Assembly (NCBI RefSeq): GCF_030028105.1
Contig: NC_092376.1
Span: 178,846,080 to 178,910,079 of the forward strand
Origin: Mobula birostris
Lineage: Eukaryota
Reading direction: 5' to 3'
Length of the DNA: 64,000 nucleotides
Shown in pieces: positions 3,001 through 34,952 of the stretch. The translations under genes and the position numbers were made by a program. Below the pieces are notes generated by a model. That model searched no databases. It saw only the letters and a list, made by a program, of their open reading frames with translations, and was not told the DNA's origin. Every line of letters begins with the position of its first letter. The stretch's first letter is position 1.

Positions 3001-3756
3001 GGAATCTATTCTGAGACCCCTACTCTTCGTGATTTGTATAAAGGATCTGGATGAAGAAGTGGAGGGATGGGTTAGTAAATTTGCTGATGACACAGAGGTT
3101 GGGGTTTTTTTAGATAGTGTGGATGGCTGACAGATGTTACAGCGGGATATTGATAGGATGCAAAACGGGGCGGAGAAGGGGCTGATGGATTTTAACCCAG
3201 ATAAGTGTGAGCTGGTTCATTTTGGTAGGTCAAATATTATAACACATTATTGCATTAATGGTAAGACTTTTAGCAGTTTGGAGGATCAGAGGGATCTTGG
3301 GGTTCGAGTTCACAGGACACTCAAAGCTACTTGCAGGTTGACTCTGTGGTTAAAAATGCATACGGTGCTTTGGCCTTCATCAGTAGTGGGATTGAGTTTA
3401 AGAGCCGAGAGGTAATATTGCAGCTATATAGGACCCTGGTGAGACCCCACTTGGAGTACTGTGCTCAGTTATGGTCGCATCACTGCAGGAAGGACGTGAA
3501 AACCATAGAAAAGGGTGCCGAGGAGATTTACATGAATGTGACCCGCATTGGGAAGCATGTGTTATGAGAATGAGCTGAGTGAGCTCAGCTTTTTCTCCTT
3601 GGAGGGACGAAGGATGAGAGGTGACCTGATAGAGGTGTGCAAGATAATGAGAGGCATTGATCGTGCGGATAGTCAGAGACTTTTTCTCAGGGTTGAGATG
3701 GCTAGAACGAGAGGACACAGTTTTAAGGTGCTTGGAAGTAGATACAGGGTCGATGG

Positions 3757-5868
3757 CATAGAAACATAGAAACACAGAAAACCTACAGCACAATACAGGA
3801 CCTTTGGCCCATAGTGTTGTGCCGAACATGTTCCTACCTTAGAAATTACTAGGCTTACCTACAGACTTCTATTTTACTAAGCTCCATATACCTATCTAAA
3901 AGTCTCTTAAAAGACCCTATTGTATCCGCCACCACCACCGTTGCCGGCAGCCCATTCGACGAACTCACCACTCTCTGAGTAAAGAACTTACCCCTGACAT
4001 CTCCTCTGTACCTGCTCCCCATCACTACAATTCTGTTATTATTACAACTTCCCTGGATCTGTTTCGCTATCTGCTCCTCGATATCCCTGTGAATATTGGG
4101 CAGCGTATATAAAAAAAAAAAAACTGTAAAGTTATAGCCCCCTTCTTGTTCCTAACCTCCGCCAACAGAGGCTCTGTTGACAATCCCTCCGTAGGGTCCA
4201 CCTTTCCTACAGCCGTGACACTATCTCTGATCAACAGTGCCACGCCCCCTTCTCTTTTGCCTCCTTCCCTGTCCTTTCTGTAATGGCCACCACATCATGT
4301 CTCCTAGTACTGATCTACGCTCTAAGCTCATTCGCTTTGCTCACAACACTCCTTTCGTTAAAATAGACGCATCTCAAACCTTCAGTCGGAGCTCGTCCCT
4401 TGTCTATCACCTGTCTATCCTCCTTCTCGCACTGTCTGCAAACTTCCTCTATTTGTGAGCCAACCTCCTCTTCCCCAATTGTTTGAGGGAGGGTACCGAA
4501 CTGAAGAATTTTCAGTTTAAAATCTCCCCAGTTGCCTTAGCAAACCTTCCTTCCAGGATATTGGTCTCCCTGGGATTCAAGTGCAACCCATCCTTTTTGT
4601 GTAGGTCACAACTGCCCCAGAAGAGGTCCCAATGATCCAGGAATCTGAATCCTTACCTCCTGCTTCAATCCCGCAGCCACGCATTTATCCTCCACGTCAT
4701 TCTATTCCTATTCTCACTGTATCATGGTACAGGCAGTAATCCGGAGATTACTACCTTTGCGGTCCTGTTTCTCAACTTCCTTCCTAAATCCCTGTAGTCT
4801 TTTTTCAGGACCTCTTCCCTTTTCCTACCTATGTCATTTGTACCAATATGTACCACGACATCTGGATGTTCTCTCTCTCTCTCTCTGCAGGATATCTTGG
4901 ACGCTATCTAAAACATCCCGGACCTTGGCACCTCGGAGGAAACCTACAATCCGCGTTTCTTTCCTGCATCCACAGAATCGTCTGTCTGACCCCCTAACTA
5001 TAGAGTCCCTTATCACTGCTGCTATCCTCTTCGTTTCCCTACCTTTCTAAGCCACAGGGCCAGACTCTGTGCCAGACAGACGGTCACTTTCGCTTCCCCC
5101 AGGTAGGCTGTTCTCTCCAACAGTACTCAAACCAGAGTACTTATTGTCAAGGGGTACAGCCGCAGAGGTACTCTCTAGTACCTGACTCTTCCCCTTTCCC
5201 TCCTGACTGTTACCCACTTGTCTGTCTCCTGTGTGACCACCAGCATATAACTCCTTTCTATCACCTCTTCGCTTTCCCTGACCAAGAGAAGGTCTCGAGC
5301 TGCAGCTCCAGTTCCCTATCTAGGTCCCTTAGGAACTGCAGCTCGACATACCTGGTGGGGATATGGCCGCCTGGGAGGCAGGGAGACTCCAGGACCTCCC
5401 AACTCTGGCACCGAGCACAGAAAACTGGCCTCACACTCATAGTACTTCCTTTCCGCAATTAACACAGGCAAACCTACTTCTCCTCTTCCCGTTACTGCCT
5501 AAGCCAGTTGAGCCAAAGCGCTATCACTCTGCCGCCTCTCACGCCGCTGCCCGCGGGATATGGCGGTCTTTTTTTAAACATTTCGCGCTCTACTAGATGA
5601 CGTCACGCACCTGCGCAGTCTCAGCTCTCTTTTACACCAAGTAGTAAATAATTCCCTACGCTCCGAAAAAATCAGCCGTTTACTCGCAGCCTTCTTGCTC
5701 CGAATCAAAAACCGTTGAAGATTCCTTGCCTTTTTAAACCTTTCGCACTCTACTGGCTGACGTCACGCGCCTGCGCAGTCTCGCCTCCCTTTTACCCGAG
5801 TAGTGAATAACTCCCTTCGCTCCGAAAAATCAGCTGTGCACTCGCAACCTTCTTGCTCCGAATCAAAA
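3757..5868 (-). mobile_element. Internally deleted CR1 LINE nested in the element above
   Basis: (CATAGAAA)n tail at 3757-3780 and CR1 3' end to ~4025, joined directly to endonuclease and ORF1 sequence (IRDSIVRGSDRRFCG; zinc-finger-like CARCQSWE...ELQFLRD) and a 5' UTR ending at 5868. Confidence 0.85.
5571..5868 (-). repeat. Two ~160-bp tandem monomers at the CR1 5' end, each with a CRE and an NRF1-like motif
   Basis: Units start at 5571 and 5731 (TTTTTAAAC...CCGAATCAAAA). TGACGTCA occurs at 5598-5605 and 5758-5765, each followed by CGC(A/G)CCTGCGCA. Confidence 0.8.
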
Positions 5869-8727: not shown

Positions 8728-10960
8728 CTTTACACCACGGTTCCTGTACGCTATCATCCTCTCCCTGTCCCATTGGTACGTACCTACGCAGAACGCCACA
8801 TAAATATCCCCTGAACATTTGCCACATTTCTGCCGTACATTTCCCTGAGAACATCTGCTTCCAATTTATGCTACCAAGTTCCTGCCTGATAGCTCCTTAT
8901 TTCCCCTTACTCCAAGTAAACGCTGTCCTAACATATCTGTCCCTGTTCCTCTCTAATGCTATGGTAAAGGAGAAAGAATTGTGATCACTATCTCCAGAAT
9001 TCTCTCCCACTAAGTGACCTGACAGCTAATCAGGTTCATTTCCCAATACTGGAACAATTACAGCCTCTCCTCTTGGAGGCCTATCTACAAACTGTGTCAG
9101 GAAACCTTCCTGAAAATACCTAACAAAGTCTGCCCCATCTAAAGCCCTTGCTCTACGGAGATGCCAATCGATATTTGGGAAATTAAAATCTCCCACCACG
9201 ACAACCCCGTTATTATTACACCTTTGCACATTTATCTTCTCCTCGATGTCCCTGTTACTACTGAGTAGTCTATAAAAACACCTAGTAGAGTTATTGACTT
9301 TTCTGTTTCTAATTTCCACCCACAGAGAATGAGTTGACAATCCCGCCGTGACTTCATCCTTTTATGGAGCCTTGACGTTATCCGTGATCACCAGTGCCAC
9401 GCCCCACCCCGTTTGCCTCCCTCATTGTCCTTTCTGAAACATCTAAAGCCTGGCACTCGAAGTAATCATTAATGCCCCTGAGCCATCAAGTCTCTGTAAT
9501 GGCCACAACATCATAGTTCCAAGTACTTATCCACGCTCTAAGCTAATCGGCTTTGTCAATAATACTCCTTGCAGTAAAATAAACACATCTGAAGCCATCG
9601 GTGTGAGCGCGTTCCTCTTCTATCACCTGCCTATCCCCCCTCTCGCACTGTCTCCAAGCTTTCTCTTTTTGAGAGCCAACCTTCTCTTCCTTCGTCAGTT
9701 CAGTGCCGTTCCCACTTCCCAGCAAGTCCAGTTTAAACCATCCCCAATAGCGCTTGCAAAACTCCCCGCCCGGATATTTCTCCCATTGGGATTCACGTGG
9801 AACCCGTCCCTTTTGTGCACGTTACACCTGCCCCAGAAGAGGTCCCGATAATCCAGAAATCTAAATCTGTGTCCTCTGCTCCAATCTCTCGGCCAGGTAT
9901 TTATCCTCCGCCGCATTCTATTCCTATACTCACTGTCACGTGGGTCAGGCAGAAATCGCGAGGTTACTCCTTTTGTGGTCCTGCTTCTGAACTTCCTCCT
10001 AACTCCCTATAGGCTGTTTTCAGGGAGTCATCCATGTACTACCTATGTCATTAGCACCAATATGTACCACGGCCCCTGGCTGTTCTCCTTCTCACTTCAG
10101 GATATCGTGGACGCGATCAGAAACATCCTGGACCCTGGCACTTGGGAGGCAAACTGACATCCATGTTTCTTTCCTGCGTCCGGAGAATCTCTTGTCTGAC
10201 CCCCTAACTACAGAGTCCCCTATCACTGCTGTCATATCTTCCTTTCCCTACTCCTACTGAGCCACAGGGACAGACTCTGTGCCAAAGGCGCGGCCACTGT
10301 TGCTTCCCCCAGGTAGGCCATCTCCTCCAACAGTAATCAAACAGGAGCACTTATTGTTAAAAGGGACAGCCACTGGGGTACACGCTAGTATCTGCCTCTT
10401 GCCCTTCCCTCTCCTGACTGTTACCCACTTATCTGTCTCCTGAGGCCGCGCTGTGACTATATGTCTATAGCTCATCTCTATCACCTCCACACTTTCCCTT
10501 ACCAGGCGAAGGTCAACGATCTGCATCTCCTGTTCCCTAACTCAGTCCCTAAGGAGCAGCAGCTCGACGCCCTGGCGCAGGTGTGGCCGTCCGGGATGCT
10601 GGAGTCTCCCGAACTTCCCACATCTGACACCGAGTACAGAACACAGGCCTCACACATATACTTCCTGTCTACATTCTACGCAGTTAACCTACCTCGCCTC
10701 GACCCGTTATCGCCGAAGCCCCGTTGAGCCAAAGGTTTCCTACTCTGTCTCTCTCTACTCTAGAAGGTTGACTCTATAAGGCTGTCTCCTTTTAAACTCT
10801 TCTCGCTTTTCTTAGAGGCTGAAGGCCACGCGCTTACGTTGACGTGCCTCGATCAAACCGCCGAAGAAATAACCATCTCCTTTTAAATTCTTCTTGCTGT
10901 TTTCATTGACTGACGTCCATACGCCTGCAGTTGTGCCCCGGTCAAACCGCTGAAGAAATA
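8728..10960 (-). mobile_element. CR1 LINE 5' part (5' UTR, ORF1 esterase, endonuclease)
   Basis: RDGFHVN, FRCVYFTARSIIDKAD, VVGDFNFPNIDW; ~90-bp tandem unit at ~10785-10960. Confidence 0.85.
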
Positions 10961-12758: not shown

Positions 12759-15143
12759 ATGGCGTGTGTACGGAGGTTAAACCTCATTCTAATTGCTTCC
12801 ATTTTCATCTTGTGTGCCCTGGAGAAGATTTCCGGGCAAATCAGTTACTCTATTCAGGAGGAAATGGAAGAAACGTCATTTGTTGGGAATATTGCTGAGG
12901 ATTTGGGATTGAATATACAGCAATTATCAACTCGTAAATTCCGACTGAGCGCTGATGACGGAGGGCGGTATATGAAGGTCAGTTTGAAAAATGGGGTTTT
13001 GTCTACTCGTGAAAAAATCGACCGGGAACGTCTTTGTGGACAAACAGATAGGTGTACGATGCCCTTTGAAATAATACTGGAAAATCCGTTGGAGGTACTT
13101 CACGGCGAGCTGGTGATTCTTGATGCGAATGACAATTCACCCACTTTCCGGGATAGTAGTATTCCGTTGGAGATATCCGAAGCCGTTTCTACCGGAGCAC
13201 GCTTCCGTCTCGAGAGTGCCGAAGACCCCGATATTGGAAGAAATACTGTCGTTGACTACGCAATCAGTTCAAGTGAGTACTTTAGTCTAAAATCACGGAG
13301 AACCGAGGGGGGTATTGTAATTGCCGAATTGCTGTTAGAGAAATCTTTGGACCGGGAATTGCAGTCATCTTTTCAGCTTGTGCTTACGGCGATGGACGGT
13401 GGGACCCCTCAGAGATCCGGAACAGCTCAGATACTCATTACTGTACTAGACTTCAATGATAATTCACCTGTATTCGAGCATGATGTTTACCGGAGTAGCA
13501 TAAGGGAAAATACACCGCGAGGTACATTAGTGATGAAAGTTAAAGCAAATGATTTGGACGAAGGGCTGAATGCAGAGCTGACATATTCCTTCAGTGGACT
13601 TACTTCACAACGGGTGCATGGTGTTTTCAGTTTGATCCCAGAAACTGGAGAGATTGTAACTGAAGGGCCTCTAGATTTTGAAGAAACAAACAGCTACTCA
13701 CTCGATATTCAAGCTGTTGATCATGGGTCTCCTGCGAATACAGGACACGCCAATGTCCAGATTAAAATTATTGACGTGAATGACAACACACCCGAAATAA
13801 AGGTGACGTCAATGACTAACCAAATCCCGGAAAATGCCCCAGCGGGAACTTATATAACATTAATCAATGTTATTGATCGTGATTCTGGAAAAAACGGTCA
13901 AGTGCGCTGCGAGATACAAAAGAATCTACCTTTTACGTTACAAGCATCATCAAATCATTATAAGTTAGTTACACGGGAAAGATTGGACCGTGAATCGGTA
14001 TCTGGGTATGCAATTCATTTTTCAGCCTGGGATTTGGGGTCACCTTCTCTGTCAACAAATACAATCATCCATATTGTAGTTACTGATGTAAACGATAACG
14101 CCCCACGCTTTTCTGAACTATCCTATAACGTATATGTGGCTGAAAATAATGCTCCTGGCACATCCATTTTCACAGTGTCTGCGTCCGATCCTGATCTGGG
14201 GCAGAATTCATCTGTTTCCTATTCCATTCTGGACGATCATTTCCAAAATCTACCAGTGTCCACATACCTCAGCGTTAACTCCATGAACGGCACCATTTAC
14301 GCCTTGCGCTCTTTTGACTATGAGGAATTCAAAACATTTCAGATCCATGTTCAAGCCCGTGACGCTGGGGTTCCCTCACTGAGCAGCAGCGCTACAGTGC
14401 ATGTGATTATTCTGGATCAAAATGACAACGCTCCGGTAATAGTTTCACATTCAGCAGAGAGTGGATCAGCAGCCGCGGAGATCATTCCTCTGTCAGCGGG
14501 TCAGGGGTATTTCGTCACCAGAATTATGGCTACAGATGTAGATTCTGGTCAGAACGCCAGGTTCTTTTACCAAATAGTGAAAGCTACTGACCCAAACTTG
14601 TTTACCATTGGTCAAACTTCCGGGGAAATCAGAACAACGCGCAAAATCATGGAGGGTGATCTTTCCACACAAACGTTGGTCATCATGGTGAAAGACAACG
14701 GGCAGCCAAACCTATCCAGCACGGTTACCCTTCACATCACAATTTTGCAGAATAGCACCGAAACACTCCCCGAGAGCAGTAATTCAGTGAATACTTCCGA
14801 ATATTTGTCAGATCTAAATCTTCATTTATTGATTATTTTCAGCTGCACTTCCATTGTCTTCCTTCTAATTATCATTGTGTTGATCGGGATCAAGTGTAAA
14901 CAGGACAGAAATAACCCCCAAGAGTACATGTCCCCCAGTTACTGTTACAAACATGGAGATATGCTGGATACGTGTAATCGAAGATCTGCAATGGAGGAAA
15001 CTTTACGTTATCCCGGTACTGAGCAGTTAGTCCGTATGCCTGGAGTGCCTCAGTACTCAGTCCGTCTTTCTCCAGAATCAGCGCAAAGCGACTTCCTTTT
15101 CTTGAAGCCATGCGGCCCTCCCACCTCTCAGAATCAATCCTAA
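12759..15143 (+). CDS. Clustered protocadherin (gene 1), 794 aa, single ORF
   Basis: Signal peptide then QISYSIQEE; EC1 IDRERLC-x5-C; five DxNDNxP linkers (6 EC repeats); TM LHLLIIFSCTSIVFLLIIIVLIGI; cytoplasmic YSVRLSPESAQSDFLFLKP. Confidence 0.97.
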   Translation: MACVRRLNLILIASIFILCALEKISGQISYSIQEEMEETSFVGNIAEDLGLNIQQLSTRKFRLSADDGGRYMKVSLKNGVLSTREKIDRERLCGQTDRCTMPFEIILENPLEVLHGELVILDANDNSPTFRDSSIPLEISEAVSTGARFRLESAEDPDIGRNTVVDYAISSSEYFSLKSRRTEGGIVIAELLLEKSLDRELQSSFQLVLTAMDGGTPQRSGTAQILITVLDFNDNSPVFEHDVYRSSIRENTPRGTLVMKVKANDLDEGLNAELTYSFSGLTSQRVHGVFSLIPETGEIVTEGPLDFEETNSYSLDIQAVDHGSPANTGHANVQIKIIDVNDNTPEIKVTSMTNQIPENAPAGTYITLINVIDRDSGKNGQVRCEIQKNLPFTLQASSNHYKLVTRERLDRESVSGYAIHFSAWDLGSPSLSTNTIIHIVVTDVNDNAPRFSELSYNVYVAENNAPGTSIFTVSASDPDLGQNSSVSYSILDDHFQNLPVSTYLSVNSMNGTIYALRSFDYEEFKTFQIHVQARDAGVPSLSSSATVHVIILDQNDNAPVIVSHSAESGSAAAEIIPLSAGQGYFVTRIMATDVDSGQNARFFYQIVKATDPNLFTIGQTSGEIRTTRKIMEGDLSTQTLVIMVKDNGQPNLSSTVTLHITILQNSTETLPESSNSVNTSEYLSDLNLHLLIIFSCTSIVFLLIIIVLIGIKCKQDRNNPQEYMSPSYCYKHGDMLDTCNRRSAMEETLRYPGTEQLVRMPGVPQYSVRLSPESAQSDFLFLKPCGPPTSQNQS

Positions 15144-15243
15144 ATTAGAGATGGGTAAGATCAACGCATGCCCAGTTTAATGTGATTATTTTTGTTTATA
15201 TTTTGGGTTGTGGTACAGTGGGGTAAAGTATTTAAGAACATAT

Positions 15244-16002
15244 AAGTCAAATATAATGGCAGAATATAGCAATACTGGTAAGATTCTTGGCAGTGTGGAG
15301 GATCAGAGGGATCTTGGGGTCCGAATCCATAGGACACTCAAAGCTTCTACACAGGTTGACTGTGGTTACTACGGTGCATTGGCCTTCATGAATCGTGGAT
15401 TGAGTTTAAGAGCCGAGAGGTAATGGTGCAGCTGTATAGGATCCTGGTCGGACCCCACTTGGAGTACTGTGCTCAGTTCTGGTAGCCTCACTACAGGAAG
15501 GTCGTGGAAACCATAGAAAGGGTGCAGAGGAGATTTGCAAGGATGTTGCCTGGATCGGGGAGCAAGCCTTATGCGAATAGGTTGAGTGAACTTGGCCTTT
15601 CCTCCTTGGAGCGACGGAGGGTGACAAGTGACCTGATAGAGGTTTATAAGATGATGAGAGGCATCGATCGTGTGGATAGTCAGAGGCTTTTTTTACAGGG
15701 CTGAAATGGTTGCAACAAGAGGACCGAGGTTTAAGGTGCTGGGGAGTAGGTACAGAGGAGATGTCAAGGGTGAATGTCTTACTCAGAGAGTGGTGAGTGC
15801 GTGAAATGGGCTGCCGGCAACGGTGCTGGCAGGCGGATATGATAGGGTCTTTTAAAAGACTTTTAGATGGGTACATGGAGCTTAGTAAAATAGAGGGCTA
15901 TAGGTAAGCCTAGTAATTTCCAAATAGGGACATGTTCGCCACAACTCCGTGGGCCGAAGGCCCTGTATGGTGCTGTACGTTTTCTATGTTTCCATGTTTC
16001 TA
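15244..16002 (+). mobile_element. CR1 3' fragment inserted 100 bp after the gene 1 stop codon
   Basis: EDQRDLGV, IERVQRRFARM, LERRRV; TTTCTATG tail; left TSD AACATAT at 15237-15243. Confidence 0.9.
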
Positions 16003-16387
16003 GCACATGCTGAGTGCCTGCAGAATATTGTTTTCATTTGACAACCCACATCTCTATTCTGTTTCCGTTTTTATTCTGCGATTTGGTATACCTTCATCAG
16101 GAATTCATTTCAAAGTACTAACGAATTTTTAGCATCTTATTTTTCCAATACGACCACTTTACGTACACATAACAATCAGATACACCATACATTTTTACGC
16201 AACATATTCAATAGCAACCCATTTGTGAGCGCCATTCAGACACAGGTAATACGATCCTCTTCAAGGTTAACATATACCACTCTCAGGTGCTTAGATTGTG
16301 GTTACTGGATATTTTATTTTTGACCACCATAACAATTAGATCCCTCTTCACAAGGGTGCAAGCATGATTTCACAAAGGAAATATGTT
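16003..16387 (-). other. Inverted segment of the gene 1 3' flank / putative 3' UTR
   Basis: The reverse complement aligns with the gene 3 flank ~62820-63210 and the gene 2 flank ~37775-38155, including AATAAA (now TTTATT at 16070-16075 and 16313-16318). Confidence 0.85.
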
Positions 16388-17478
16388 AGAACATAGAAAA
16401 CCTACAGCACAATACAGGCCTTCGGCCAACAAAGCTGTGCCGAACACATCCTTATCTTACAACTCTACCTCGGCTTACCCATAACACTTGATTTTGTTAA
16501 GCTCCGTGAACCAATCCAATAAGCTCTTAAAAGAGCCTAGCGTTTCTACCTCCAGCACCGCCGCCGGCTGCCTATTCTAACGTACTCACCACTCTCTGCG
16601 GAAAAACAATTACCCCTGACATCTCTGTACCTGCTTCCTACCACCTTAAACCTATGCTCTCTCGTGCTAGCCATTTCAGCTCTGGGGGAAAAAAAAAGTT
16701 TCTCTACCTAATCACACAATCAATGCCTCTCATTATCTTGGTCTGATCAGGGTTCTATATAGCTGCAACATTACCTCTCCGCTCCTAAACTCAATCCCAC
16801 GATTGATGAAGTCCAATACACTGGACGCCTTCTTAACCACAGAGTCAACCTGCACAGCTGCTTTGAGTGTCGTATGGACGTGGACCCCAAGATCCCTCTG
16901 ATCCTCCACACTTCCAAGAGTCTTGCCATTAATCGTATATTCTGCCATCATATTTGACCTATCAAAATGAATAAATTCGCACTTATCTGGTTTGAACTCC
17001 ATCTGCCACTTCTCAGCCCAGTTTTGCATTCTATCAATGTTCTGCTGTAATATCTGACAGCACTCCACACTATTCACAACACCTCCAACCTTTGTGCCAT
17101 CAGCAAACTTACTAACCCATCCCTCCAATTCCTCATTCAGGTCATTTGTAAAAATCACTAATAGTAAGTGTCCCAGCACAGATCCCTGAAGCACTCCACT
17201 GGTGACCGACTTCCATGTAGAATATGACCCGTCTACTAACACTCTTTGCCTTCTGTAGGCAAGCCAGTTCTGGATCCACAAAGCAATGCTCCCTTGGATC
17301 CCATGCCTCCTTACTTACTCACTAAGCCTTGCATGGGGTACCTTATCAAATGCCTTGATGAAATCCACATACACTACATCTAATGCTCTTCCTTCATCAA
17401 TGTGTTTTGTCACATCCACAAAAAATTCAATCAGGCTCGTAAGGCACGACCTATCCTTTACAAAGCCATGCTGACTAT
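16388..17478 (-). mobile_element. CR1 3' fragment (RT to tail, internal deletion near 16740)
   Basis: WIQNWLAYRRQRV..QGSVLG..KFADGTKVGG..WQMEF; tail at 16388-16400. Confidence 0.9.
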
Positions 17479-17611
17479 GTCAGTCTTCACTTCTGGAAAA
17501 CACAAGAGTTCTTCGTTTCATATCCGGAGTGTTTCTCAGAACAAGTATAAAAAATAACGACTACCGTGTTGTATTCACAGAAGAGGAGATTGGGGGATGG
17601 ATGGAACAAAG

Positions 17612-17690
17612 CAGGGTTTCCCCAACTTTTTTTATGCCATAGACCCCTACCGTTAAGCAAGTGGTCCATGGACTCCAGTTTGGACTCATG
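17612..17690. mobile_element. ~80-bp hAT(Charlie)-like mini-MITE
   Basis: CAGGGTTTCCCCAAC...GTTTGGACTCATG degenerate terminal inverted repeats. The segment is absent from the paralogous flanks at ~63340 and ~38288. Confidence 0.6.
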
Positions 17691-18382
17691 CGAATATCAC
17701 TGAAATGGTCAGTGCATGGGAGGAATCGGAACAGTTAAGTCGATATTGATTTTTTTTTTCTTCTGGATAACGTGCTGCTAATAACAACAGGAATTTAGAA
17801 CATGCCAAACAGCCGCGAATCAGTCTGTCTTTAAACTACGTTGATACCTTCTTCTACAAGAAAGATGAAGAACACTCTAACTGCTTGTTACTTTAGAGCT
17901 CCTTCACGACTTCATACATGTCCCATTGTCTCCAGCTAAGATTCCACATCTTTCACGTAGACTACAGAACGGCAAGAGATGCAAAATAGACCTTTTTTTT
18001 TATCACCTAAGCCGCCAGAGTCCAGTTATCTCTCTTGTCAGGAAGAATTGATGTGCATGCAACTCTTCTAATGTAATTCGAAAGACAAATCGCTGATTTG
18101 GATAAATCCCCGTGGTGAGATCCAGCGTTTCCTGGGATATTACGCGAATATGGGGTGGGGGGGGGATGCAAACGTCTGAAGGGCATTTTTCCTTTTTAAT
18201 CTTTGCCATGGGAAAACTGTCTAATGTTATGCTGATATTTAAGAACGGTTACAAAAGCAATCCAGGGCTCCTCAGGCCTGCGAGCCTCACACCACTGGTG
18301 GTAAAATTACAAGAGTGTTCATTGAGGGCCAGAGTCTCTTAGGATTTGTAATGGGAAGGAATTAAAGTTTCGTGAGTAGGAT

Positions 18383-21300
18383 AACATAGAAACATAGAAA
18401 CATAGAAAACCTATTGCACAATAAAGGCCCATCAGCCCACAAAGCTGTGCGGAACGTGCCCTTACCTTAGGAATTACCTCGGGTTACCCATAGCCATCTA
18501 TTTTTCTAAACTCCATGTACCTATGCAGGAGTCTCTTAAAAGACCCTATCGTATCCACCTCCACCACCATTGCTGGCAGCCCAGTCCGTGCACTCATCAC
18601 TCTGTGTGTAAAAAAAAACTTACACCTGCCATGCCCTCTGTACCTTCCTCTAAACACCGTGAAGCTGTGCCGTCTCGTCTTAGCCATTTCAACCCTGCGG
18701 GGGGGGGGGGGCACCTCTGACTATCCACACGATCACTGCTTCTCATCATCTTATACACCTCTAACAGGTCACCTCTCATCCTCCACTGCTCCAAGGAAGA
18801 AAAGGCCGAGTTCACTCAACCTGTTCTCTTAAGGCATGTTCCCCAATCTAGGCAACATGCTCGTAAATCTCCTGGGCACTATTTCTATAGTTTCTACATC
18901 CTTCCTGTAGTGAGGTGACCAGAACTGAGCACAACACTCAAAGTGGGGCCTGACCAGCCGTAACATTACGTCTCGGCTCTTACACTCAATCCCACAGTTG
19001 ATGAAGGCCAATGCACTGTATGCTTTCTTAACAACAGCGTCAATCTGCGCAGCAGCTTTGAGTGTCCTATGGACTCGGAGACCAAGTTCCCTCTGATCCC
19101 TCACACTGCTAAGAGTCTTACCAGTAGTATTATATTCTGCCAACATATTTGACCTACCAAAATGAACCACCTCACACTTATCTGGGTTGAACTCCATCTG
19201 CTATTTCTCAACCTAATTGTGCATCCTATCGAGGTCCCGCTGTAACCTCTGACAGGCCTCCACACTATCCATAACATACCCAACCTTTGCGTCATCAACA
19301 AATTTACTTATCATTCCCCTCACTCCCTCATCCAGGACATTTATGAAAATCCCGAAGAGAAGGCGTTCCAGAACAGATCCCTGAGACACACCACTGGTCA
19401 CCAACCTCTATGGAGAATATGACCCGGCTGCAACTACTCTTTGCCTTCTGTGGGCAAGCCAGTTCTGTATCCACAAAGCAATTTACCCTTGGATCCCATG
19501 CTTACTTACTTTCTCAATAAGCTTTGCATGGAAAACCTTTTGGAATATCTTGCTGAAATCCATATACTCTACATCTACTGCTCTATCTTCATCATCGCGT
19601 TTATTCACATCCTCAAAAATTTCAATCAGGCTCGCAAGGCACGAACCACCTTTGGCAAAGCCATGCTGACTATTCTTAATCACATTATGCCTCTCCAAAT
19701 GTTCATAAATCTTGCCTCTTAGGATCTTTTCCATCAACTTACCAACCACTGAGGTAAAACTCACTGGTCTATAATTTCCTGGGCCAACTCTACTCCCTTC
19801 CTTGAATAAGGCAACAACATCTAGAACCCTCCAATCCTCTGGAACCTCTCCTGCCCCAATTGATGATGCAAAGATCATTGTCAGAGTTCAGTAATCTGCT
19901 CCCATGCCTCCCGCAGTAGATTGGGGTACATCTCATCCGGTCCCGGAGAATTAACCAACTTGATGCTTTCTAAAACTTCAACACATCCACTTTCTTAATG
20001 TCTATAGCTCAATCTTTTCAAACCGCTGTAAGTCAGCCCTACAATCGCAAAGATCCTTTTCCGTTGTGAATACTGAAACAAAGTATTCATTAAGTATCTC
20101 TGCTATATCCTGAATCTTCCATCCACACTGTTTCATTGTCACACTTGATTGGTCCTATTCTCTCACGTCTCATTTCTTGCTCTTCACATCCTTCTAGAAT
20201 GCCTTGGGGTTTTCCTCAATCCGGCTCGTCAAGGCCTTCTTCTGGCCTTTTCTTGCTCTCCTAATTTCATTCTTAAACTCTTTCCTACTAGCCTTATAAT
20301 CTTCTAAATCTCTATCATTACCTAGTTTTTTTTTGAAACTTTCGTGAAGTTTTCTTTTCCTAACAGACAATAGGCAATAGACAATAGGTGCAGGACTTGG
20401 CCATTCGGCCCTTTGAACCAACACGGCCATTCACTGTGATCATCCACAGTCAGTAGCCCGTTCCTCCCTGATCCCCATAACCTCTGATTCCGCTATCTTT
20501 AAGAGTTCTATCCACCTCTTTCTTGAAAGCATCCAGAAACCTGGCGTCCACTGCCTTCTGGGGCAAAGCATTCCACATATTCACCACTCTCCGGGTGAAA
20601 AAAGTTTTTCCTCAACTCCGTCCTAAATGGCCTACCCCTTATTCTTAAACTGTGGCCTCTGGTTCTGGACTTACTCATTAGTGGGAACATGCTTCCTGCC
20701 TCCAGCGTGTCCAATCCCTTAATGATCTTATATTTTCAATCAGATACCCTCTCATCCTTCTAAATTCCAGTGTATACAAGCCCAGTCTCTCCAATCTTTC
20801 AACATGTGGCAGTCCCGCCATCCCGGGAGGTAACCTTGTGAACCTACGCTGCACACTCTCAATAGCAAGAATGTCCTTTCTCAAATTTGGAGAACAAAAC
20901 TGCACACAATACCCCAGGTGTGGTCTCACCAGGGCCCTGTACAGCTGCAGAAGGACCCTTTTGCTTCTATACTCAATTGCCCTTGTTATGAAGGCCAGCA
21001 TGCCATTAGCTTTCTTCACTGCCTGCTGTACCTGCATGCTTGCTTTCAGCGACTGATGTACAAGAACACCTAGATCGCGTTGTAATTCCCCTTTTCCTAA
21101 ATTGACTCCATTTAGGTAATAATCTGCCTTCCTGTTCATACCACCAAAGTGGATAACTTCACATTTATCCAAATCAAACTGCATTTGCCATGCATCCGCC
21201 CACTCACCCAGCCTGTCCAAGTCACCCTGCATTCTCATATCATCCTCCTTACATTTCACACTGCCACCCAACTTGGTGTCATCTGCAAATTTGCTAATGT

Positions 21301-24300
21301 TACTTTTAATCCCTTTATCTAAATCGTTATTGTATATTGTAAACAGCTGCGGTTCCAGCTCTGAACCCTACGGTACCCCACAGGTCACCGCCTACCATTC
21401 CGAGAGGGACCCGTTAATCGCTACACTTTGTTTCCTGTCAGCCAGCCAATTTTTAATCCATGTCAGTACTCTGTCCCCAATACCATTTGCCCTAATTTTT
21501 CCCATTAATCTCCTATGTGGGACTTTATCAAAGGCTTTCTGAAAGTCCAGGTACACTACATCCACTGGCTCTCCCTTGTCCATTTTCATAGTTACATCCT
21601 CAAAAAATTCCAGAAGATTAGCCAAGCACGATTTCCCCTTCGTAAATCCATGATGACTCGGACCTATCCTGTCACTGCTATCTAAATGTGTCATAATTTC
21701 ATCTTTAATAATTCCACCACTGACGTCAGGCTAACCGGTTTATAAATCCCTGTTTCTCTGTCCCTCCTTTCTTGAAATATGGGTCAACATTAGCCACCCT
21801 CCAATCCACAGGAACTGATCCTGAATCTATAGAAGATTGGAAAATGATCACCAATGCGTCTACGATTTCTAAAGCCACCTCCTTAAGTATCCTGGGATGC
21901 AGACCATCAGGTCCCAGGGCCTTATCAGCCTTCAGACTCAACAGTCTATCCAACACTATTTCCTGCCTGATATAAATTTCCTTCAGTTCATCCATTACCC
22001 TAGGTCCTTTGGCCATATTATATCTGGGAGATTGTTTGTGTCTTCCCGAGTGAAGACAGATCCAAAGTACCTGTTCAATTCGTCTGCCATTTCCTTGTTC
22101 CCCATAATAAAGTTACCGGTTTCTGTCTTCAAGGGCCCAATTTTGGTCGTAACTTTTTTTTTTCTTTTGACATACCTAAAGAAGCCTTTACTATCCTCCT
22201 TTACATTCCTGGCTAGTTTACCTTCGTACCTCATTTTTTTTCCCTGTGTCGCTTTTTAGTTATCTTCTGTTGCTCTTTAAAAGTTTCCCAATCCTCCAGC
22301 TTCCCACTCATTTTTGCTATGTTATACTTCTTCTCTTTTATTTTTATTCTGTCCTTTACTTCCCTTGTCAGCCATGGCCTCCCCTTACTCCCCTTGGGAT
22401 CTTTCTTCCTCTTTGGAATGAACAGATCCTGCACCTTCTGCATTATTGCCAGAAGTACCTGCCATCGTTGTTCCACTGTCATCCCTGCTAAGGTATCGTT
22501 CCATTGAACTTTGGCCAGCTCCTCCGTCATAGCATCATAGTTCCTTTTGTTCAACTGTAATACTGACACTTCCGATTTTCCCTTCTCCCTCTCAATTTGT
22601 ACATTAAAACTTATCATATTATGGTCACTACCTCCTAATGGCTCCTTTACCTCGAGATCTCTGAACAAATCCGGTTCATTGCACAACACTAAATCTTGAA
22701 TTGGCTTCTCTCTGGCATGCTCCAGTACAAGCTGTTCTAAGAATCCATCTCGGCGTCACTCCACAAACTCCCTTCCTTGGGGTCCAGTGCCAACCTGATT
22801 CCTCCAGTCTACCTGCATGTTGAAATCCCTCATATCAACTGTAGCATTACCTTTGCGACAAGCCAATTTTAACTCTTGATTCAACTTACACCCTACATCC
22901 AGACTACTGTTTGGGGACCTGTAGATAGCTCCCATTAAGGTCTTTCTGCTTTTAGAGTTTCTCAGTTCTATCCATACTGACTCTACATCTCCTGATTCTG
23001 TTTCCCCTCGCAAGGGACTGAATATCAGTCCTCACCAACAGAACCACGGCACCCCCTCTGACATCAGTCTGTCATTTCGATAGGAAGTATATCCTTGAAT
23101 ATTCATTTCCCAGGCCCTGTCCACTTGAAGCCATGTCTCTGTTATTCCCACAACATCATACTTACCAATTTCCAACTGCGCCTCAAGCTGATCCACTTTA
23201 TTTCTTATACTCCGTGCATTCATATACAATACTTTTAATTCATTACTCCCCTCACCTCCCATATCAATTCCTATTTCACTTGGTCATAGTGTACGATCCC
23301 TTCTTGAAGAAACCGGAGATAACCACCTTGGAATTCCTGCTTTTCAGCCTTCTTCCGAGTTCTCTGAAGTCATACTGTAGAATGTCTTTCCTCTTCTTCC
23401 CCACATCATTTTTGCTGATATGCGCCACCACTTCCGGATGTTCACCTTCACCCTTGAGAATTCCCTGCACTCGGTCCGTGACGTCCTGGATCCTGGCACC
23501 AGGAAGACAACACACCATTCTTAAATCTTGCCTGCTGCGGCAGAAACCCCTTTCAGTACCTCTTACTATGGAGTCCCCTACTACCACGGCTCTGTCTGAC
23601 GTCTGTCTCCTCGGCTTTGCTTCAGCGCCATTTTTTGACTCGCAGACCTGACTGCCTTTTACGCTGGCATCATCTTCTGTCCCGACAGCTTCCAAGAGGG
23701 TGAATCTGTTTACGAGATGACTGGATTTTCAACAATCTTTGTACACTCGGGTTCCTGTACCCTACCATCCTTTTTCTGTCTCATTGGAACGTACCTATGC
23801 AGAACGCCACGCCAATATCCTTGAGCATTTGCCAGATTTCTTCCATGTATTTCCCTGAGAAAATCTGTCCCCAATTTATGCCCAAGTTCCTGCCCGATAG
23901 CTTCATATTTCCCCCTAGTAAAATTAAACGCTTTCCTAACTTGTCTGTACCTATCCCTGTCCAACACTATGGTAAAGGAGATATAATTATGATCACTATC
24001 TCTAAAGTGATCTGCCACTGATAGACCGGACGCCTGACCAGGTTTATTTCCCAATACTAGATCAAGTTCAGCCTCTTCTCATGTAGACTTATCTACATAT
24101 TGTGTCAGAAAATCTTCCTGAACACACCTAACAAACCTGAACCCATCTAAACCCATTGTTTTAGGGAGATGCCAATCAATATTTGGGTAATTAAAATCTC
24201 CCACTACGATACCCTGATATTATTACACCTTCCATAATGTGTCCCCCTATCTGCTCCCCGAAGTCCCTGTTACTTTTGGGTGGTCTATAAAAAAAACTCA

Positions 24301-25510
24301 GTGGAGTTATTGACCCCTACCTGCTTCTAACTTCAACCCACAGACAATCAGTAGACAATCCCTCCATGACTTCTTCGTTTTCTGCAGCCGTGGCACTATC
24401 TGTGATCAGCAGTGCCACGCCCCCACCTTTTTGCCTCCCTCCCTGTCCTTTCTGACGTATCTATCGCCTGGCAATCTAAGTAACCATTCCTGCCCCTGAA
24501 CCATCCAAGTATCTGCAATAGCCACAACATCATAGCTCCAAATAGTGATCCACGCTCTAAGCTATCCGCTTTGTTCATGATGCTTCTTACATTAAAATAG
24601 ACACATCTAAAACAATCGGTCTGAGCGCATCCCTTCTCTATCACCTTCCTATCCTCCTTCTCGAACTGTCTCCAATCTTTCTCCGTTTGTTTGCTAACAG
24701 CCCATCCTCCGTCTCTTGAGTTCGTTTCCCATCCCCAGCAATTCGAATTTAAACTCTTCCCAATAGCCTTAGCAAACCTCCCTGCCAGGATGTTAGTCCA
24801 CCTCCGATTCAGGTGCAACGCGGCTTTTTTGTACAGGTCCGAAAAGAGGTCCCAATAATGCAGTAATCTGAATCCCTGCCCCCTACTGCAATCCCTGAGC
24901 CATGCATTCATCCTCAACCTCAGTTTATTCGTATACTCACTGTTGCGTAGCACAGACAGTAATCCAGAGATTACTATCTTTGAGGTCCTGCTTCTCAACC
25001 TCCTCCCTAGCTCCTTGTAGTTTGTTTTCAGAGCCTCCTCCTCCCCTTTCCTACCTATGTCGTTGGTATCAGACGCACCACGACCACTGATGTGCACCTT
25101 TCCATTTCAGGATACCGTGGACGCGATCCGAAACATCCTGGACCCTGGCACGGGGGAGGCAAACTACCATCCGGGTTTGTTTCCTGCGTCCACAGAGTCG
25201 CCTGTCTGACCTCCTAACTGTTGATTCCCCTTAGTAGGCTGTCCCCCGCCAAGAGCACTGAAACAGGAGTACTTATTGTTAAGGCGGACAGCCACTGTAT
25301 TACTCTCTGGTATTTGCATCTTGCCCATCCCTCTTCTGACTGTTACCCACTTATCTGTCTCCAGAGGCCCTGTGTGACTACAATTTGACGCACCTGGAAG
25401 CTGACTAAGAAGCTGCAATTTGACGCACCTGGCTGAAATTTGTCCGCTCTACAAAGCTGTCTCCATTTAAACTTCGCGCCGGTCTAACTCGCAGTGGTCT
25501 CTTTTCGCTC
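18383..25510 (-). mobile_element. Near full-length decayed CR1, interrupted by a second CR1 at 20364-23710
   Basis: (CATAGAAA)n tail at 18383-18410; RT fragments (NYRPVSFTSVVGKLME, MDFSK). The host breaks at ~20363 and resumes at ~23712 with endonuclease and ORF1 (TNDIGRKG..ALHLN). Confidence 0.85.
20364..23710 (-). mobile_element. CR1 of a second subfamily ((CTATTGT)n-type tail), nested
   Basis: AGACAAT repeats at 20364-20386; VYLDFQKAFDKVPH, LKVLYMNARSIRNK, VVVGDSIVRGTERGFC. Confidence 0.9.
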
Positions 25511-25834
25511 CTTATGCAAATATAAGGACAAGAAATTGCTCAGAATGGAAAAAAATAGCGTAAGCTAATACAGTGAGTACAGAATGGTACAGTGGCGAAA
25601 ATTTGAAATGAAGCAGAATGCTGAATTTCTGTAGAAAGGAACGGATAGCTTTCTGACAAAGTATGTGACCGATAGTAAGATAGGTGGAGGAGGGAGTAGT
25701 TTTGGCAAACCAGAGAATTTGCAGAAGGAATAAGGCAGATAATGAGAATGGGCAAATAACTGGCACATGGAATATAGTGGAGGGAAGTGCATGGTAATGC
25801 ATTTTGACAGAACGAGTGAAGGCGTTGACTATTA

Positions 25835-28800
25835 GGATCATCAGGCCATAACATATAGGAGCAGAATTAAGACATCTGGTCGGTCCATTGACTCTGTTCC
25901 GTCATTCCATCATGACTGATCCAATTATCATTTCAGCCCATTCTCCTGCCTTCTCCCCATATCCTTTCATTCCCTGACCAAAAATATACAGAAAGCTTTG
26001 AAAACGACAGCTGCCTGTGGCAAGAATTTCACAGATTCAGCACTCTCTGACTAATTATATTCTTTTTCATCTCTTTTCCAAAAGGTTTCCCCTCTAATCT
26101 GAGTCTGTGCCTCTGGTCTTAGATTTCCCATCAGAGGAAACATTCTCTTCACATTCATTCTATTAAGGCTTTGCACCATTCGTTGGGTTTTAATGAGGCC
26201 ACCCCTCGTTCTACTGAATTTCATAAGCCATCCTGGAATAATTTTCGTGAGTCTCCTTTGAAAATCTCCAGTTTCAGTACATCTTCTCTAAGATAAGGGG
26301 CCCAAATCTGCTCACAATACTCCAAGTGAGGCCTCAGTAATGCTTTATAAAGTTTCAACATGATATCCTTGCTTTTATATTCCAGTCCTCTTAAAATGAA
26401 TGCTATCGTTGCATTTGCCTTTCCCACCCAGACTCATCCTGCAAGTTACTCTTGAGGGAATCCTGAACAAGGACTCCCAAGTCCATCTGCACTCCCGTTT
26501 TTATTTTTATTTTCTCTGCATTTAGAAAATAGTCATCCCTATCAGTTCTTTCACCAAAGCGAATGACCATACACTTCCCGGCATGGTATTCCATCTGCCA
26601 CTTCTTGCTCATTCTCCTTATCTGACTAAGCCCTTCTGTTGCCTCCCTACTTGCCCCTCCATCTAGCATCATATCGGCAGTAAGCTTTGCAACAAAGCCA
26701 TCAACTCCATTATATAAATCATTAGCGTATAAAATAAAAGAATCGGTCCCAACAGAGAACCCTGTGGAACACTAATATTCACCGGCAGCCGGTCAGAAAA
26801 GGCTCCCTTTATTCCCACTCTTTGCCTTCTGCCAATTAGCCACTGTTTGATCCATGCTAGAACATTTCCCTTGAGGACATACGAGATGTGGTTGATAAGT
26901 TCGTAGCCTAAGTTAGAAGGAGTCAATTTTAGAAAACCTAGCACATTTATTTTTTCCTATACTTACACGCTTAGGGCAGCGGTCGTGGAGCATACAGATC
27001 CCTTCTTTGTAGAAGTTGGCGTCTTGGACTTCCAGAAGTGATTGGTAAGTTCGTGGCCTAAAGTAGAAGGAGATGAGGACAAACTACAAACTTTCTGCAT
27101 TTTCACTCAAAGAGTTCAACTGCACTTGCATGTAACGAGAGCTATATAACTCATCTCCTTTCACCTTATGTCACGAACTTATCAATCACCCCTGCTGTGG
27201 ACCACCTGGAGGTCCAAGACTTTCTTGTTACATGCACGTGCAGTTCAACTCTTTGAGTGATAATGCAGAAAGTTTGAAGTTAATAACTCATCTCCTTCTA
27301 CCTTAGGCCACGAACCTATCAATCTCCCCTACAAAGAAGGGATCCGTATGCTCCACGACCGCTGGACTAAATGTGTACATGTAGGAGGGGACTATGTTGA
27401 AAACTAAATGTGTTAGGTTTTCTAAAATGGACGCCTTCTACCTTAGACCACAAACTTATCAATCACCCCTTGTATGCTGTCTACAACCTGCATTATTTTG
27501 TGCCTTAGTACACTAAGATTTCGTTATTAATAATCGACCCCAACATCTTCCCGACCACTGAGGTCAGACTAACTGGTCTCTAGTTTCCTTTATTCTGCAT
27601 CTCGCTTCTTGAAGAGTGGAGTGACCTTTACACTTTTCGAGTCTTCCAGAACAATTTCAGAAGCTAATGATTATTGGAAGATCATTTCTAATGTCTCCAC
27701 GAAATCTTCAGCCACTTATTTCAAAACTGTAGGATGTACACCATCTAGTGCAGGTGACGTACGTACCTTCAGGCCTTCAGTTGCCCAAGAACCTTCTTTC
27801 TAGTTATGGGATCTTCACACACACTGAACGGGCCCTGACACCGGGAACTTCCACCATACTGCTAATATCTTCCCCAGGGAAGACTGATGCAAAATGTTAA
27901 TTCATTTTGTCCGCTATCTCTCAGTACCCGATCACTATCTCTCCAGTATCGTTTCCCAGCGGTATAATATTGACTCTCACCTCTCCTTTACACTTTACGT
28001 TCCTGAAGAAACGTATGCTTTCCTGTATTATTATAGGCTAGATCACTTTCGTGTCCATCTTTATCTTCGTAATGACTTTTTAAGATGCTTTCGGTTGGTT
28101 TTTAAAATCTTCCCAATTCTCAAGCTTCCCAATGATTTTTGCTCTATTAAATGCTCTCTCTGGCCTTTATATTGGCTTTAATTTCTCTTGTTATCCATTG
28201 TTGTGTCATCTGCCTTTTAGAATAATTCTTCTCTTTAGTATGTATATATCCTGTGTCTTCTGTATTCGTTCCAGAAATTCCAGGCAACGTTCCTCAGCCG
28301 TCATCCTTGACAGTGTTCTTTTGCAATCACTTCTGACCAACTCCTCTCTCATGCCCCTGTCATTCCCCTTATCCACTATAATGCTAGTACATCTGACTTT
28401 CGCTTCTCCTTCAGAAATTTCAGGGTGAATTCGGTCATATTATGATCACTTTCCCTGAAAGGTTTTTTTAAAATCTTAAACTCTAATGTCAATTCTGGTT
28501 AATCGCAAAACACCCAATCCAGAACAGCTGTTTCTCTTGTGGGCTCAACCACGAGGTACTCTGCAAAAACCATTTCTTAAGCACTCCAGAAATTCCACTC
28601 CCTGTAATTGAGCTGCAACATTATTTTCCCAATCTGTCTGCATATTGAAGTCCCCCATGACTATTGTATCATTAACCCTTTGTTTTGCATTTTCTATCTT
28701 CCGTCTTAATTGGTAGGCCACATCCTTGCTATTGTTTGGTGGTATATATGCTCCTCCCATATGGATTCCTTTACCTTTGCAGTTCCCTAGCACTATCCAC

Positions 28801-29990
28801 AATAATTCAACACCTTGCGACCCCATGTCCACTCTTTCTAATGATTTCATTTCATCTTTCTTTTACCAAAGGGATCACGTCGTCCCCCGTCTTTCGTCCT
28901 ATCCTTCTGGTGCAATGCGTATCCTTTGACGTTAAGCTCCAAGCTATAATCTTTGTGCCATGATTCATTGATAGCTACAACATCATACGTGCTAATCTGC
29001 AACTGTGCTGCAAGTTCGTCTACGTTTTTCAGTACACTGCTGGCATTCAGATACAACAGCTTCAATCCTGTATTCAGGCTTTTCAATTTGGTCTGCCTTT
29101 TACGTTGCAACTCATCCTGTTAACTGTAATTTTGCCCTATCAACCGCTTCTCCTCACTACACATTGCCTCTGTCTGTAAAACAGCAACTTCATCTTCAGC
29201 ACTATTTTCCGCCTTTCCTGCATTGAAATACAGGCATCTCAGGACACTAGTCACAAAATGCTCAACCTTCAGTTTCCTAATTTTGTCTGAGGTCTTACCA
29301 AGATCTACTTCCACAGCATCTCCACTCAATGTTTTGGCACTCTGCTTCCTACCATGCAGAATTAACAAGCCATACTGCCTGCATATTAGTCACCTTCCAT
29401 TTCAGGTGCTGAACGTCCTACTGTACAGGTCCCACCCTACCTGGGAAAAAAAAATGATCCAAAAATATTTTGCCCTCCCTCCCACGTATTAAACCCTATA
29501 ACCTCGCTAGTTCGGCCGCACTAGCACATAGCGCGGTTAACACTCCTGAGATCACAACCCTGGAGGCCCTGCCTTTTGATTTAGCATGTAGCTTCCTGAA
29601 CACTCTCTGCAGAACCTCGTCATTTGTCGCAACCATCTTATTGGTACATAAATGGACCAGGACTTCCGGTTGTTCTCCTTCCCACTCATGGTTAATGAGG
29701 ACTAAATCCGAGTTATCCCAGACCCTCGCACGCGACAATCTCGTTCTTGCCCACAGCACCTACTGTTCGTTCCCATTACTAACCAATCTCCTATCATCAC
29801 AACGTGCCTCTTCTCCTCCCTTCCCTTCTGAGACACAGAGGCAGCCACTGCCAGCGACCAGACGACTGTCACTTTCCTCTGTTAGATCATCCTGCTGACA
29901 GATTCCCAAATGATATATCTCTTGTTGAGAGTGATTGCTACAGGGGCACTCTCCACTGGCTCCTTAACCTCGTCCCATCTTTTTTTCCAA
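25835..29990 (-). mobile_element. Older decayed CR1 (composite), interrupted by a mariner MITE
   Basis: LLRPHLEYC, VPQGSLLGP, VMGDFNMQTDW, LKLLYLNASS, PEVLVHLCTN fragments. Confidence 0.75.
26882..27472. mobile_element. Palindromic Tc1/mariner-derived MITE with TA target duplication
   Basis: TA at 26880-26881 and 27473-27474; ~40-bp TIRs; 27330-27407 translates YKEGIRMLHDRWTKCVHVGGDYVEN*, the mariner transposase C-terminus, and is mirrored in the left arm. Confidence 0.88.
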
Positions 29991-30144
29991 ACGGGGCGTA
30001 CATTTAGAAATCAGAGGTGCTAGGGGGGCTTGGGAGTCTACTTACAGGATTCACTAAAGGATAACTTCCTGGTTGAATCCGTGGTAAGAAAGACAAATGC
30101 AAATGTTACTATTCCCTTTGAGAGGATGCAGTGCTACGGCTTTA

Positions 30145-30895
30145 TGGAGACTTAAGGCTCAATGCTAAGGGAGACAGGAGCGGAGTTAAGATTGCGCTAT
30201 ACGGCGACTCGTTTGCTTGCATCTTCGGAAACAGCTCTATTTCCTTCATTGATATCTTTATTTTTTCCCTTTTAGGGATCTTTTGAAGACACTGACCTGG
30301 AGTTGCACGCAGACTTCGGTTCTTTGCGGGAGTGGGATCCGTTCTCGGGATTTCAGGACTGCCGTTATTCAGCACGCCAAGTGTTCCAGCTTGTACTTGG
30401 AAGCCTAAGATCTTGAGGCGCTGGAGATGGGCAGATCGAGGGGTGGTGTCACGGCAGGAGACTCGTGTGTCGTCGGGGGAGTCGGAAAACTACTACTGTG
30501 GGCCCGAAAACCCGAGATCTTTGCGAGCTTCAGGCACAGAGCTCGAAAAGAGCGACGTAACGGATATTTAAAATCGTAAACCAGCGAGTTGCTGTTACGT
30601 GTCCCCACTGGATGGGAAAATGGAGACACCTCCCTCTCTCTTCTAAGGGAGAGGAGAACCTGTGGTATGTCGAATGCCGGATGAAACGCGAAGTCTCTGT
30701 GGTAACTGCGAGTCTGTGTCTTTGCTATTGCTTTGCTCACGCTTGGCTGCTTGCTGGCGGTGCTGATGCTTGCTTTTTTTGCCGGTGGGGGGAGGAGGGA
30801 TCTTTGCTTGCTGCCGCTTACGCACAGGAGGGGGGAGTTGGGGGTAGTGGCTCTATGGTTCTCGCGTTTAGCTGTCGTTCATTCTTTGGGGTGTT
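30145..30895 (+). repeat. Unclassified CpG-rich interspersed repeat (probable non-autonomous retroelement)
   Basis: Abrupt GC/CpG-rich block with no credible ORF; family not identifiable by eye. Confidence 0.35.
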
Positions 30896-34598: not shown

Positions 34599-34952
34599 GT
34601 GATATACAAATCATTTTGTTTTTTAATACATTGAACTATATTACTGAACCGAAAGTGTAGAACTGCCCCAGTGCAATGTGCATTCAGATTTAAAATCTCT
34701 TGCGCATATTGTGTTTGTGCAATTCATATCACAGAACAAATGTAGAAAGCTAACTGTCATGGCGGATACGAGGGTAAAACAGACGTTTAATATAACTGAA
34801 TCATAGAAATGTTCATGGAATTTAACTGCTCCCGATTACATTCTGAGTGATTTTGTAGGACGTACTAAATTTAAGGTTAAAATGTCATCTAAAAGCAGTT
34901 TTATGTTTTACGATGCTGAACACTGAAAATAAAATTTAATGGGAAACGTCAT

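Follow-up and report, generated by a model that had tools for sequence, protein, structure and literature searches.

The DNA that we analyzed (hereafter the window) is a stretch of 64,000 nucleotides from the genome of Mobula birostris. It contains three intact protocadherin ORFs of 794 to 795 aa, all on the plus strand, and profile searches assigned to each of them six cadherin repeats and a Cadherin_C_2 cytoplasmic domain. The first of these, gene 1 (12759 to 15143, plus strand, 794 aa), is an intact ORF that matches Cadherin_2, five Cadherin stretches and Cadherin_C_2, and its stop codon lies within the large exon. A large exon with six cadherin repeats, a membrane span (which for gene 1 was read from the sequence), a variable cytoplasmic part and a tandem arrangement on one strand identify it as a clustered protocadherin. 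The C-terminal part of the protein has 57 matches in its own genome, 56 of them on a single contig and a single strand, over about 2.2 Mb. Its 107 protein homologs are all from sharks and rays, the nearest named ones being those of stingrays and devil rays. Gene 1 does not have the structure of the alpha/gamma type, in which a variable exon is spliced in frame to coding constant exons, because its stop precedes the donor. A coding constant exon for gene 1 was rejected, since 106 of the 107 elasmobranch homologs lack a C-terminal extension and terminate 12 to 28 residues past the start of the same motif (the remaining one could not be parsed). As the stop lies within the large exon throughout the family, a downstream exon would be non-coding. 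Only two Cadherin_tail matches were found in the genome, about 1.0 Mb upstream (G000:C8:177850928-177851137, L019) and 1.3 Mb downstream (180168327-180168548, L018), and they likely represent the constant coding exons belonging to the first and the last subcluster.

Shark protocadherin subclusters named delta, epsilon, mu and nu were reportedly described by Yu et al. in 2008; as far as they are portrayed in the papers citing that work, they share with gene 1 the protein encoded in one large exon and the tandem cluster. Gene 1 also resembles the protocadherin-beta-type genes, which are likewise clustered in tandem and whose entire protein, with its short cytoplasmic part but no constant domain, comes from a single large exon (Wu and Jia 2020, PMC7811963). 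The mammalian beta genes are described there as single-exon, whereas gene 1 appears to be spliced in its 3' UTR, where one contig leaves the genomic sequence at a donor behind the stop. Between genes 2 and 3 there are decayed protocadherin relics (43628-44819 and 56394-57728) with 67 to 68% identity to the intact genes and large gaps. Paralog L009 has a stop four codons early (L009:2428), with the old stop still present downstream, and paralog L012 has an ORF broken after about 350 residues (L012:1136) and looks like a pseudogene.

The inversion behind gene 1 is real. The original prediction held that the segment 16003-16387 is the reverse complement of what follows the stop in genes 2 and 3, that it lies between tail-to-tail LINE copies, and that their target-site duplications (TSDs) are swapped crosswise; all three points were borne out, the last with the coordinates and sequences originally given. 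The chimeric make-up of both LINEs, the 193 bp missing at the junction of the right one and the splice donor 11 nt past the stop, all described below, were not part of that prediction. This unique spacer of 385 bp (16003 to 16387, minus strand by alignment to the paralog flanks) has local alignment scores of 217 and 235 against the flanks of genes 2 and 3 when reversed, versus 39 and 34 in the forward orientation, and 200 shuffles gave maxima of 41 and 43. Its reverse complement aligns to 62885-63207 with 67% identity, inside the interval (62820-63210) where the original prediction had placed its match; the second refuting condition named there, a failure to align to this interval, therefore does not apply. 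We extended the comparison to 19 distinct flanks of other paralogs (17 fetched stretches and those of the window, minus one duplicate and gene 1 itself): the spacer matches 10 of the 19, every one on the minus strand and none on the plus strand, and the DNA on either side of it matches paralog flanks on the plus strand. The best match (74%) is the upstream neighbor of gene 1, paralog L001, which has no LINE at this place.

The two LINEs are flanked by short words that are true TSDs, swapped crosswise. The outer copy of the first (15237-15243, plus strand, 7 bp) is the reverse complement of the inner copy at 16381-16387 (minus strand), and the inner copy of the second (16005-16008, minus strand, 4 bp) is the reverse complement of the outer copy at 17477-17480 (plus strand). 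When aligned to L001, to which all four copies were mapped, each pair collapses onto a single site. The chance of a matching word at a fixed place is 1.6e-4 for the 7-mer and 5.7e-3 for the 4-mer, two letters of which may be microhomology between LINE and target.

By their tail and their ORF2 motifs, both LINEs are putative members of the CR1 clade rather than of the related L2 clade, and we call them CR1-like. The right one retains the end of a reverse transcriptase domain (RVT_1, E 6.8e-9, above the curated cut-off), and the LINE copies show 5' truncation and tails of octamer units. These are traits shared with CR1 LINEs, which are known for heavy 5' truncation and an octamer microsatellite at the 3' tail (PMC4316615). 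For subfamily typing, the 29 best genomic matches were fetched for each of five LINE pieces (145 in total); once duplicates and copies lacking the 3' end had been dropped, 126 were classed by diagnostic sites at the 3' end, as 64 X, 58 Y and 4 unclear. Six further diagnostic sites in the 5' part were chosen by their correlation with the 3' class among natural copies.

Both LINEs proved to be chimeras of the two subfamilies. The 5' part of the left LINE (15244-15510, plus strand) belongs to subfamily Y. It carries the Y allele at all six 5' sites; at least five Y alleles occur in none of the 64 X-class copies and in 28 of 40 Y-class copies. Among the 29 best genomic matches to 15244-15503, 26 could be classed (3 could not), and 24 of these have Y-type 3' ends, with one X and one unclear. 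Unlike them, the left LINE has a 3' end of its own that is X: comparison with genomic copies places its 3' part and octamer-repeat tail (15648-16002, plus strand) in this subfamily. The likelihood score reaches +27 bits for Y up to 15510, where the cumulative score turns, and ends at a total of -81; sites favoring X are weak from 15537 and strong from 15647. This leaves a crossover zone at 15511-15647 (plus strand), within a stretch that is absent from the right LINE. In 15246-15647 the majorities of X and Y disagree at just 9 of 411 columns, versus 23 of 353 in the 3' zone, which places the crossover where the elements match best. From end to end, the left LINE is colinear with copies elsewhere in the genome, and the switch from Y to X is in register.

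The right LINE has the reciprocal composition. Its 3' part and tail (16388-16739, minus strand) favor Y over X by 93 bits, and its 5' part (16740-17476, minus strand), which includes the reverse transcriptase remnant, is of subfamily X (-62 bits). The last 220 bp of this X part are less clearly X: among 18 classed best matches to 16740-16962 there are 10 X, 7 Y and 1 unclear, and sites 16796 and 16790 are Y-like. Each TSD thus joins the 5' end of a LINE to the tail of the matching subfamily. If the halves are reassembled accordingly, the left 5' part and the right 3' part would be those of one original element (A, subfamily Y), and the right 5' part and the left 3' part those of another (B, subfamily X), the two 3' ends having been flipped. 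The halves of element A diverge unequally from the Y majority, by 6% (16/264) and 14% (46/331; Fisher p 0.002); in natural Y copies the 5' and 3' divergences are only 4.4% and 6.1%, with a 3' maximum of 13%. This imbalance and the mixed matches to 16740-16962 both count against the reconstruction. In the segment 16388-16739, decay is roughly double that of the other three (14% vs 6-9%), which could reflect descent from an unsampled older subfamily or error-prone repair.

At the right junction (16739/16740, minus strand) X and Y do not meet in register; the microhomology there is 1 bp at most, and the LINE stretch equivalent to 15455-15647 (193 bp) is absent. As the crossover zone falls inside this gap, the simplest view is that the gap dates from that same event, although its later loss is conceivable. 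Four of the 29 Y-type best matches (L081, L083, L096 and L104) are 5'-truncated within about 10 bp of the point where the right junction resumes, perhaps a preferred point of breakage or truncation.

We infer the following order of events. Element A (about 760 bp, plus strand) would have inserted 100 bp past the stop of gene 1, forming a TSD of 7 bp, and element B (about 1.28 kb, minus strand) a further 385 bp away, forming one of 4 bp. Crossing over within the conserved ORF2 zone (15511-15647) would then have flipped all the DNA between the two elements, the flipped piece, from the crossover to 16739, being about 1.2 kb long and hence larger than the spacer alone. The left junction would have formed in register, and the right one would be missing 193 bp around the crossover, for which end-joining during that event is the simplest cause; such a mixed mechanism, with one homologous and one end-joined end, is part of the explanation that we prefer. 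Transcripts of gene 1 would be spliced from a donor at 15155 past the whole rearranged region, so that the antisense AATAAA hexamers in the spacer would not set the end of the mRNA and a hairpin formed by the LINEs would be confined to the pre-mRNA. Taken together, we consider it likely that some 1.2 kb behind the stop of gene 1 were inverted by recombination between two CR1-like LINEs, and that this happened within a 3' UTR intron, with nearly neutral consequences.

The reciprocal chimeras and the swapped TSDs support the ectopic recombination between inverted LINEs that had been proposed at the outset. One could instead imagine that the inversion arose without a crossover between resident copies, from breaks that were end-joined or resolved by template switching, or through a coupled LINE insertion. 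The out-of-register right junction with its microhomology of 1 bp at most would fit such an origin, as would the stronger decay of the 3' part of the right LINE relative to its partner, and small inversions between Alu copies of about 82% similarity have been ascribed to replication-based repair (PMC9675761). Yet the left LINE is colinear over its full length and changes from Y to X in register, which needs homology, and each TSD links the 5' end and the tail of one and the same subfamily; we therefore regard an origin without homologous crossover as unlikely. A more specific version, in which a non-homologous inversion with staggered breaks duplicated 213 bp and left the entire left LINE of X type, was rejected because the 5' part of that LINE is Y-type; it shares just two derived letters with the overlapping part of the right one. 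Twin priming has the wrong geometry, as the second TSD lies right next to the 5' end of the X piece.

An error of assembly is another matter, because an assembler that flipped a segment between inverted repeats would likewise swap the TSDs and create chimeras, and among the contigs examined no read or contig was seen to cross the internal junctions. Such a flip would however not delete 193 bp from one of the copies. It would also have to occur between sequences whose in-register identity is now merely 85% and 76%, and whose longest exact shared run, 31 bases at 15292, lies about 200 bp from the switch at 15511-15647. We consider an artefact very improbable.

The recombination that we favor has well-described counterparts in primates, where inversions mediated by recombination between retrotransposons (RRMI) involve L1 and Alu elements in human and chimpanzee (Lee et al. 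2008, PMC2603318). The event behind gene 1 is most likely an RRMI with a junction deletion and shows four of the five features by which we compared it with the class; for the fifth, an ortholog with both elements in the pre-inversion state, the contigs of organism B (see below) contain both LINEs but, among those listed, no junction that tells the orientation. The intervening segment is inverted relative to the ancestral state, for which the paralogs serve as proxy; a pair of retrotransposons belonging to one type lies in opposite orientation across both breakpoints; both are chimeric (Y then X on the left, X then Y on the right, where the junction is out of register by 193 bp); and the TSDs are mismatched around each element and matched crosswise. 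It differs from the primate cases in that it involves CR1-like LINEs in a ray and in that the ancestral orientation comes from paralogs rather than from an ortholog. Junction deletions were reported in 12 of 49 primate RRMI cases (PMC2603318) and in 4 of 7 human Alu-mediated inversions (PMC9675761). Our case is closest to the small inversions mediated by transposable elements with complex breakpoints and junction deletions of 38 to 251 bp (Balachandran et al. 2022, PMC9675761), with which it shares a size of about 1 kb, diverged copies and a junction deletion within that range. Those inversions are Alu-mediated and polymorphic in humans, in contrast to the CR1-like LINEs of a ray considered here. 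In the same study, the LINE-1 cases had simple breakpoints and about 97% similarity, and the homology-driven LINE-1 events had a median identity of 93.5%, the Alu events standing at 82%; the in-register identities found here are below the former and near the latter. In the literature that we searched for CR1-mediated inversion or ectopic recombination in sharks, we found only a broad vertebrate survey, which set inversions aside.

How old are these events? The LINE segments differ by 6 to 14% from the majorities of their subfamilies, which makes the insertions old. In a close relative (organism B), DNA contigs match both outer junctions and the block of tail, spacer and tail with 96 to 98% identity, and the insertion of both LINEs hence predates the split from that species. 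These contigs cover 15098-15302, 15962-16416 and 17449-18400, blocks that are identical before and after the inversion and thus neutral as to its orientation; none of those listed crosses 15511-15647 or 16739/16740. In organism C, one contig matches 15086-15244 and continues with 53 unlike letters, and its exit at 15244 would fit an empty site. Organisms D and E gave no matches at the junctions, and no ortholog with both LINEs in the ancestral orientation was seen among the relatives' contigs examined. The original prediction also suggested that the inversion may be polymorphic or recurrent. This seems less likely from the sequence, because identity between the copies is down to 76 to 85%, their longest exact run is 31 bases and the zone in which they matched best is gone.

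The consequences for gene 1 depend on where its transcripts end. A splice donor (GTAAGA, 15155-15160, plus strand) lies 11 nt past the stop and is the likely start of the intron bearing the inversion. A contig of 258 nt from run X10 matches 15040-15154 with no differences over 115 nt and then continues with 118 letters that do not lie on 15040-17580, and a contig from run X9 stops at 15154. The RNA status of these runs is an automated guess, none of the runs being recorded as RNA and X10 being marked as "probably DNA," and both belong to one study and have a depth of 3 to 5. Since GTAAG is rare in the window (0.64 per kb), an exit at this very position is unlikely to be due to chance. This exit at a donor lies upstream of everything that was rearranged, so the inverted piece is probably intronic. 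L001, the sister paralog without the inversion, has this donor as well, and L013 has one like it; being common to L001, the donor predates the inversion and is not a rescue that followed it. About 10 of 19 paralog ends have a GT 12 to 15 nt past the stop (for L009, counted from the older stop); the ends concerned are those of gene 1 (15141-15160), L001, L006, L008, L009, L013, L015 and L016 and the two in the window at 37693 and 62723. This GT is strong only in gene 1, L001 and L013 and is absent there in L002 to L005. Possibly it represents an ancient donor site leading to a non-coding exon.

The acceptor is less apparent. A pyrimidine tract followed by CAG at 18025-18041 (plus strand) provides a candidate, hinted at by sequence alone, for an exon from 18041. 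Of 11 distinct paralog flanks that aligned, counting that of gene 1, 7 have the CAG at this position, and the 118 nt from 18041 end at the start of a run of nine Gs, but 52 other candidates in 17580-35300 have a stronger pyrimidine tract. Three RNA-type runs gave no coverage at 16060-16314, 16485-16569 and 17505-17580, an absence that we do not count as evidence, and run X18 had no piece at the end of gene 1 among those listed. None of the papers searched reports that the 3' UTR is spliced in a protocadherin lacking a coding constant region, although the 2008 article of Yu et al., which lay outside this search, may describe one. Such a structure would matter for the annotation of elasmobranch clusters.

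The spacer carries two AATAAA motifs, and both are now antisense, as had been claimed. The distal one (16070-16075, minus strand) is found at the same place in 5 of 10 paralogs and the proximal one (16313-16318, minus strand) in 1 of 10; the sister L001 has neither. The conclusion drawn from this in the original prediction, a flip of gene 1's own poly(A) signals that obliges its mRNA to end elsewhere, finds no support, for the contigs leave or stop at 15154/15155, upstream of both motifs, at a donor that the uninverted L001 also has. The two motifs are probably not the poly(A) signals of gene 1. The distal one, being kept in half of the paralogs, may work as a signal in some of them.

One could still read the inverted piece as the 3' UTR of gene 1, which would have lost its poly(A) signals, so that the mature mRNA would continue across both LINEs and form a long hairpin liable to editing or nuclear retention. 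The antisense orientation of both motifs, the conservation of the distal one and the long duplex into which the LINE pair folds would all agree with this. It is nevertheless an unlikely reading, because the donor 11 nt past the stop is precisely where one contig leaves and another ends, because L001 has this donor yet lacks AATAAA at both homologous places, and because the LINE segments could pair before the inversion, which in fact removed 193 bp of pairing. A different possibility, hardly less speculative, is that genes of this subcluster have two alternative 3' ends, an intronic poly(A) site about 400 nt past the stop or a spliced non-coding exon downstream, and that the inversion flipped this site in gene 1, leaving the spliced 3' UTR as its sole option. 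Nonsense-mediated decay spares a transcript whose stop is within about 50 nt of the last junction, and under this equally tentative scenario the donor at 11 nt would be close enough for that. Were it true, a transposon would have changed the isoform-specific choice of a 3' end in a cluster that encodes neuronal identity.

As for the hairpin itself, the claim that a long duplex can form stands as a prediction: the fold of 15640-16760 has a minimum free energy of -460 kcal/mol (a value without shuffle control at such length), with 471 pairs between the two LINEs. The claim that it resulted from the inversion does not stand, since the segments could pair beforehand and the hairpin hence dates from the insertion of the second LINE; with the inverted piece spliced out as we favor, it would be present only in the pre-mRNA. 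Editing is common in inverted repeats of introns. No changed letters that would point to A-to-I editing are listed for the RNA-type contigs, which is uninformative because contigs drop rare variants. The window has further inverted LINE pairs, with identities of 77 to 78%, at 229-1997 and 8731-10486, 497-2021 and 23718-25231, and 2039-3758 and 18627-20343. The left LINE (15243-16002) has a second possible inverted partner at 18387-19156, also with 77 to 78% identity.

As it stands, the inversion matters little and is probably harmless or neutral. Its interest lies in providing a base-resolved case in which CR1-like LINEs of cartilaginous fishes make small inversions by recombination, as L1 and Alu do in primates. 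It also indicates that paralogs, TSDs and subfamily markers can be used to rebuild such an event from a single genome. The inversion could serve as a phylogenetic marker among rays.

Other repeats in the window include two tandem arrays, one at 46574-46858 with four copies of a 72-bp unit and one at 46998-47661 with 18.5 copies of a 36-bp unit, the latter having long open frames on both strands. Finally, a stretch of 600 bp at 26878-27476 matches its own reverse complement with 70% identity and has inverted ends, and by its sequence it resembles a decayed non-autonomous DNA transposon.
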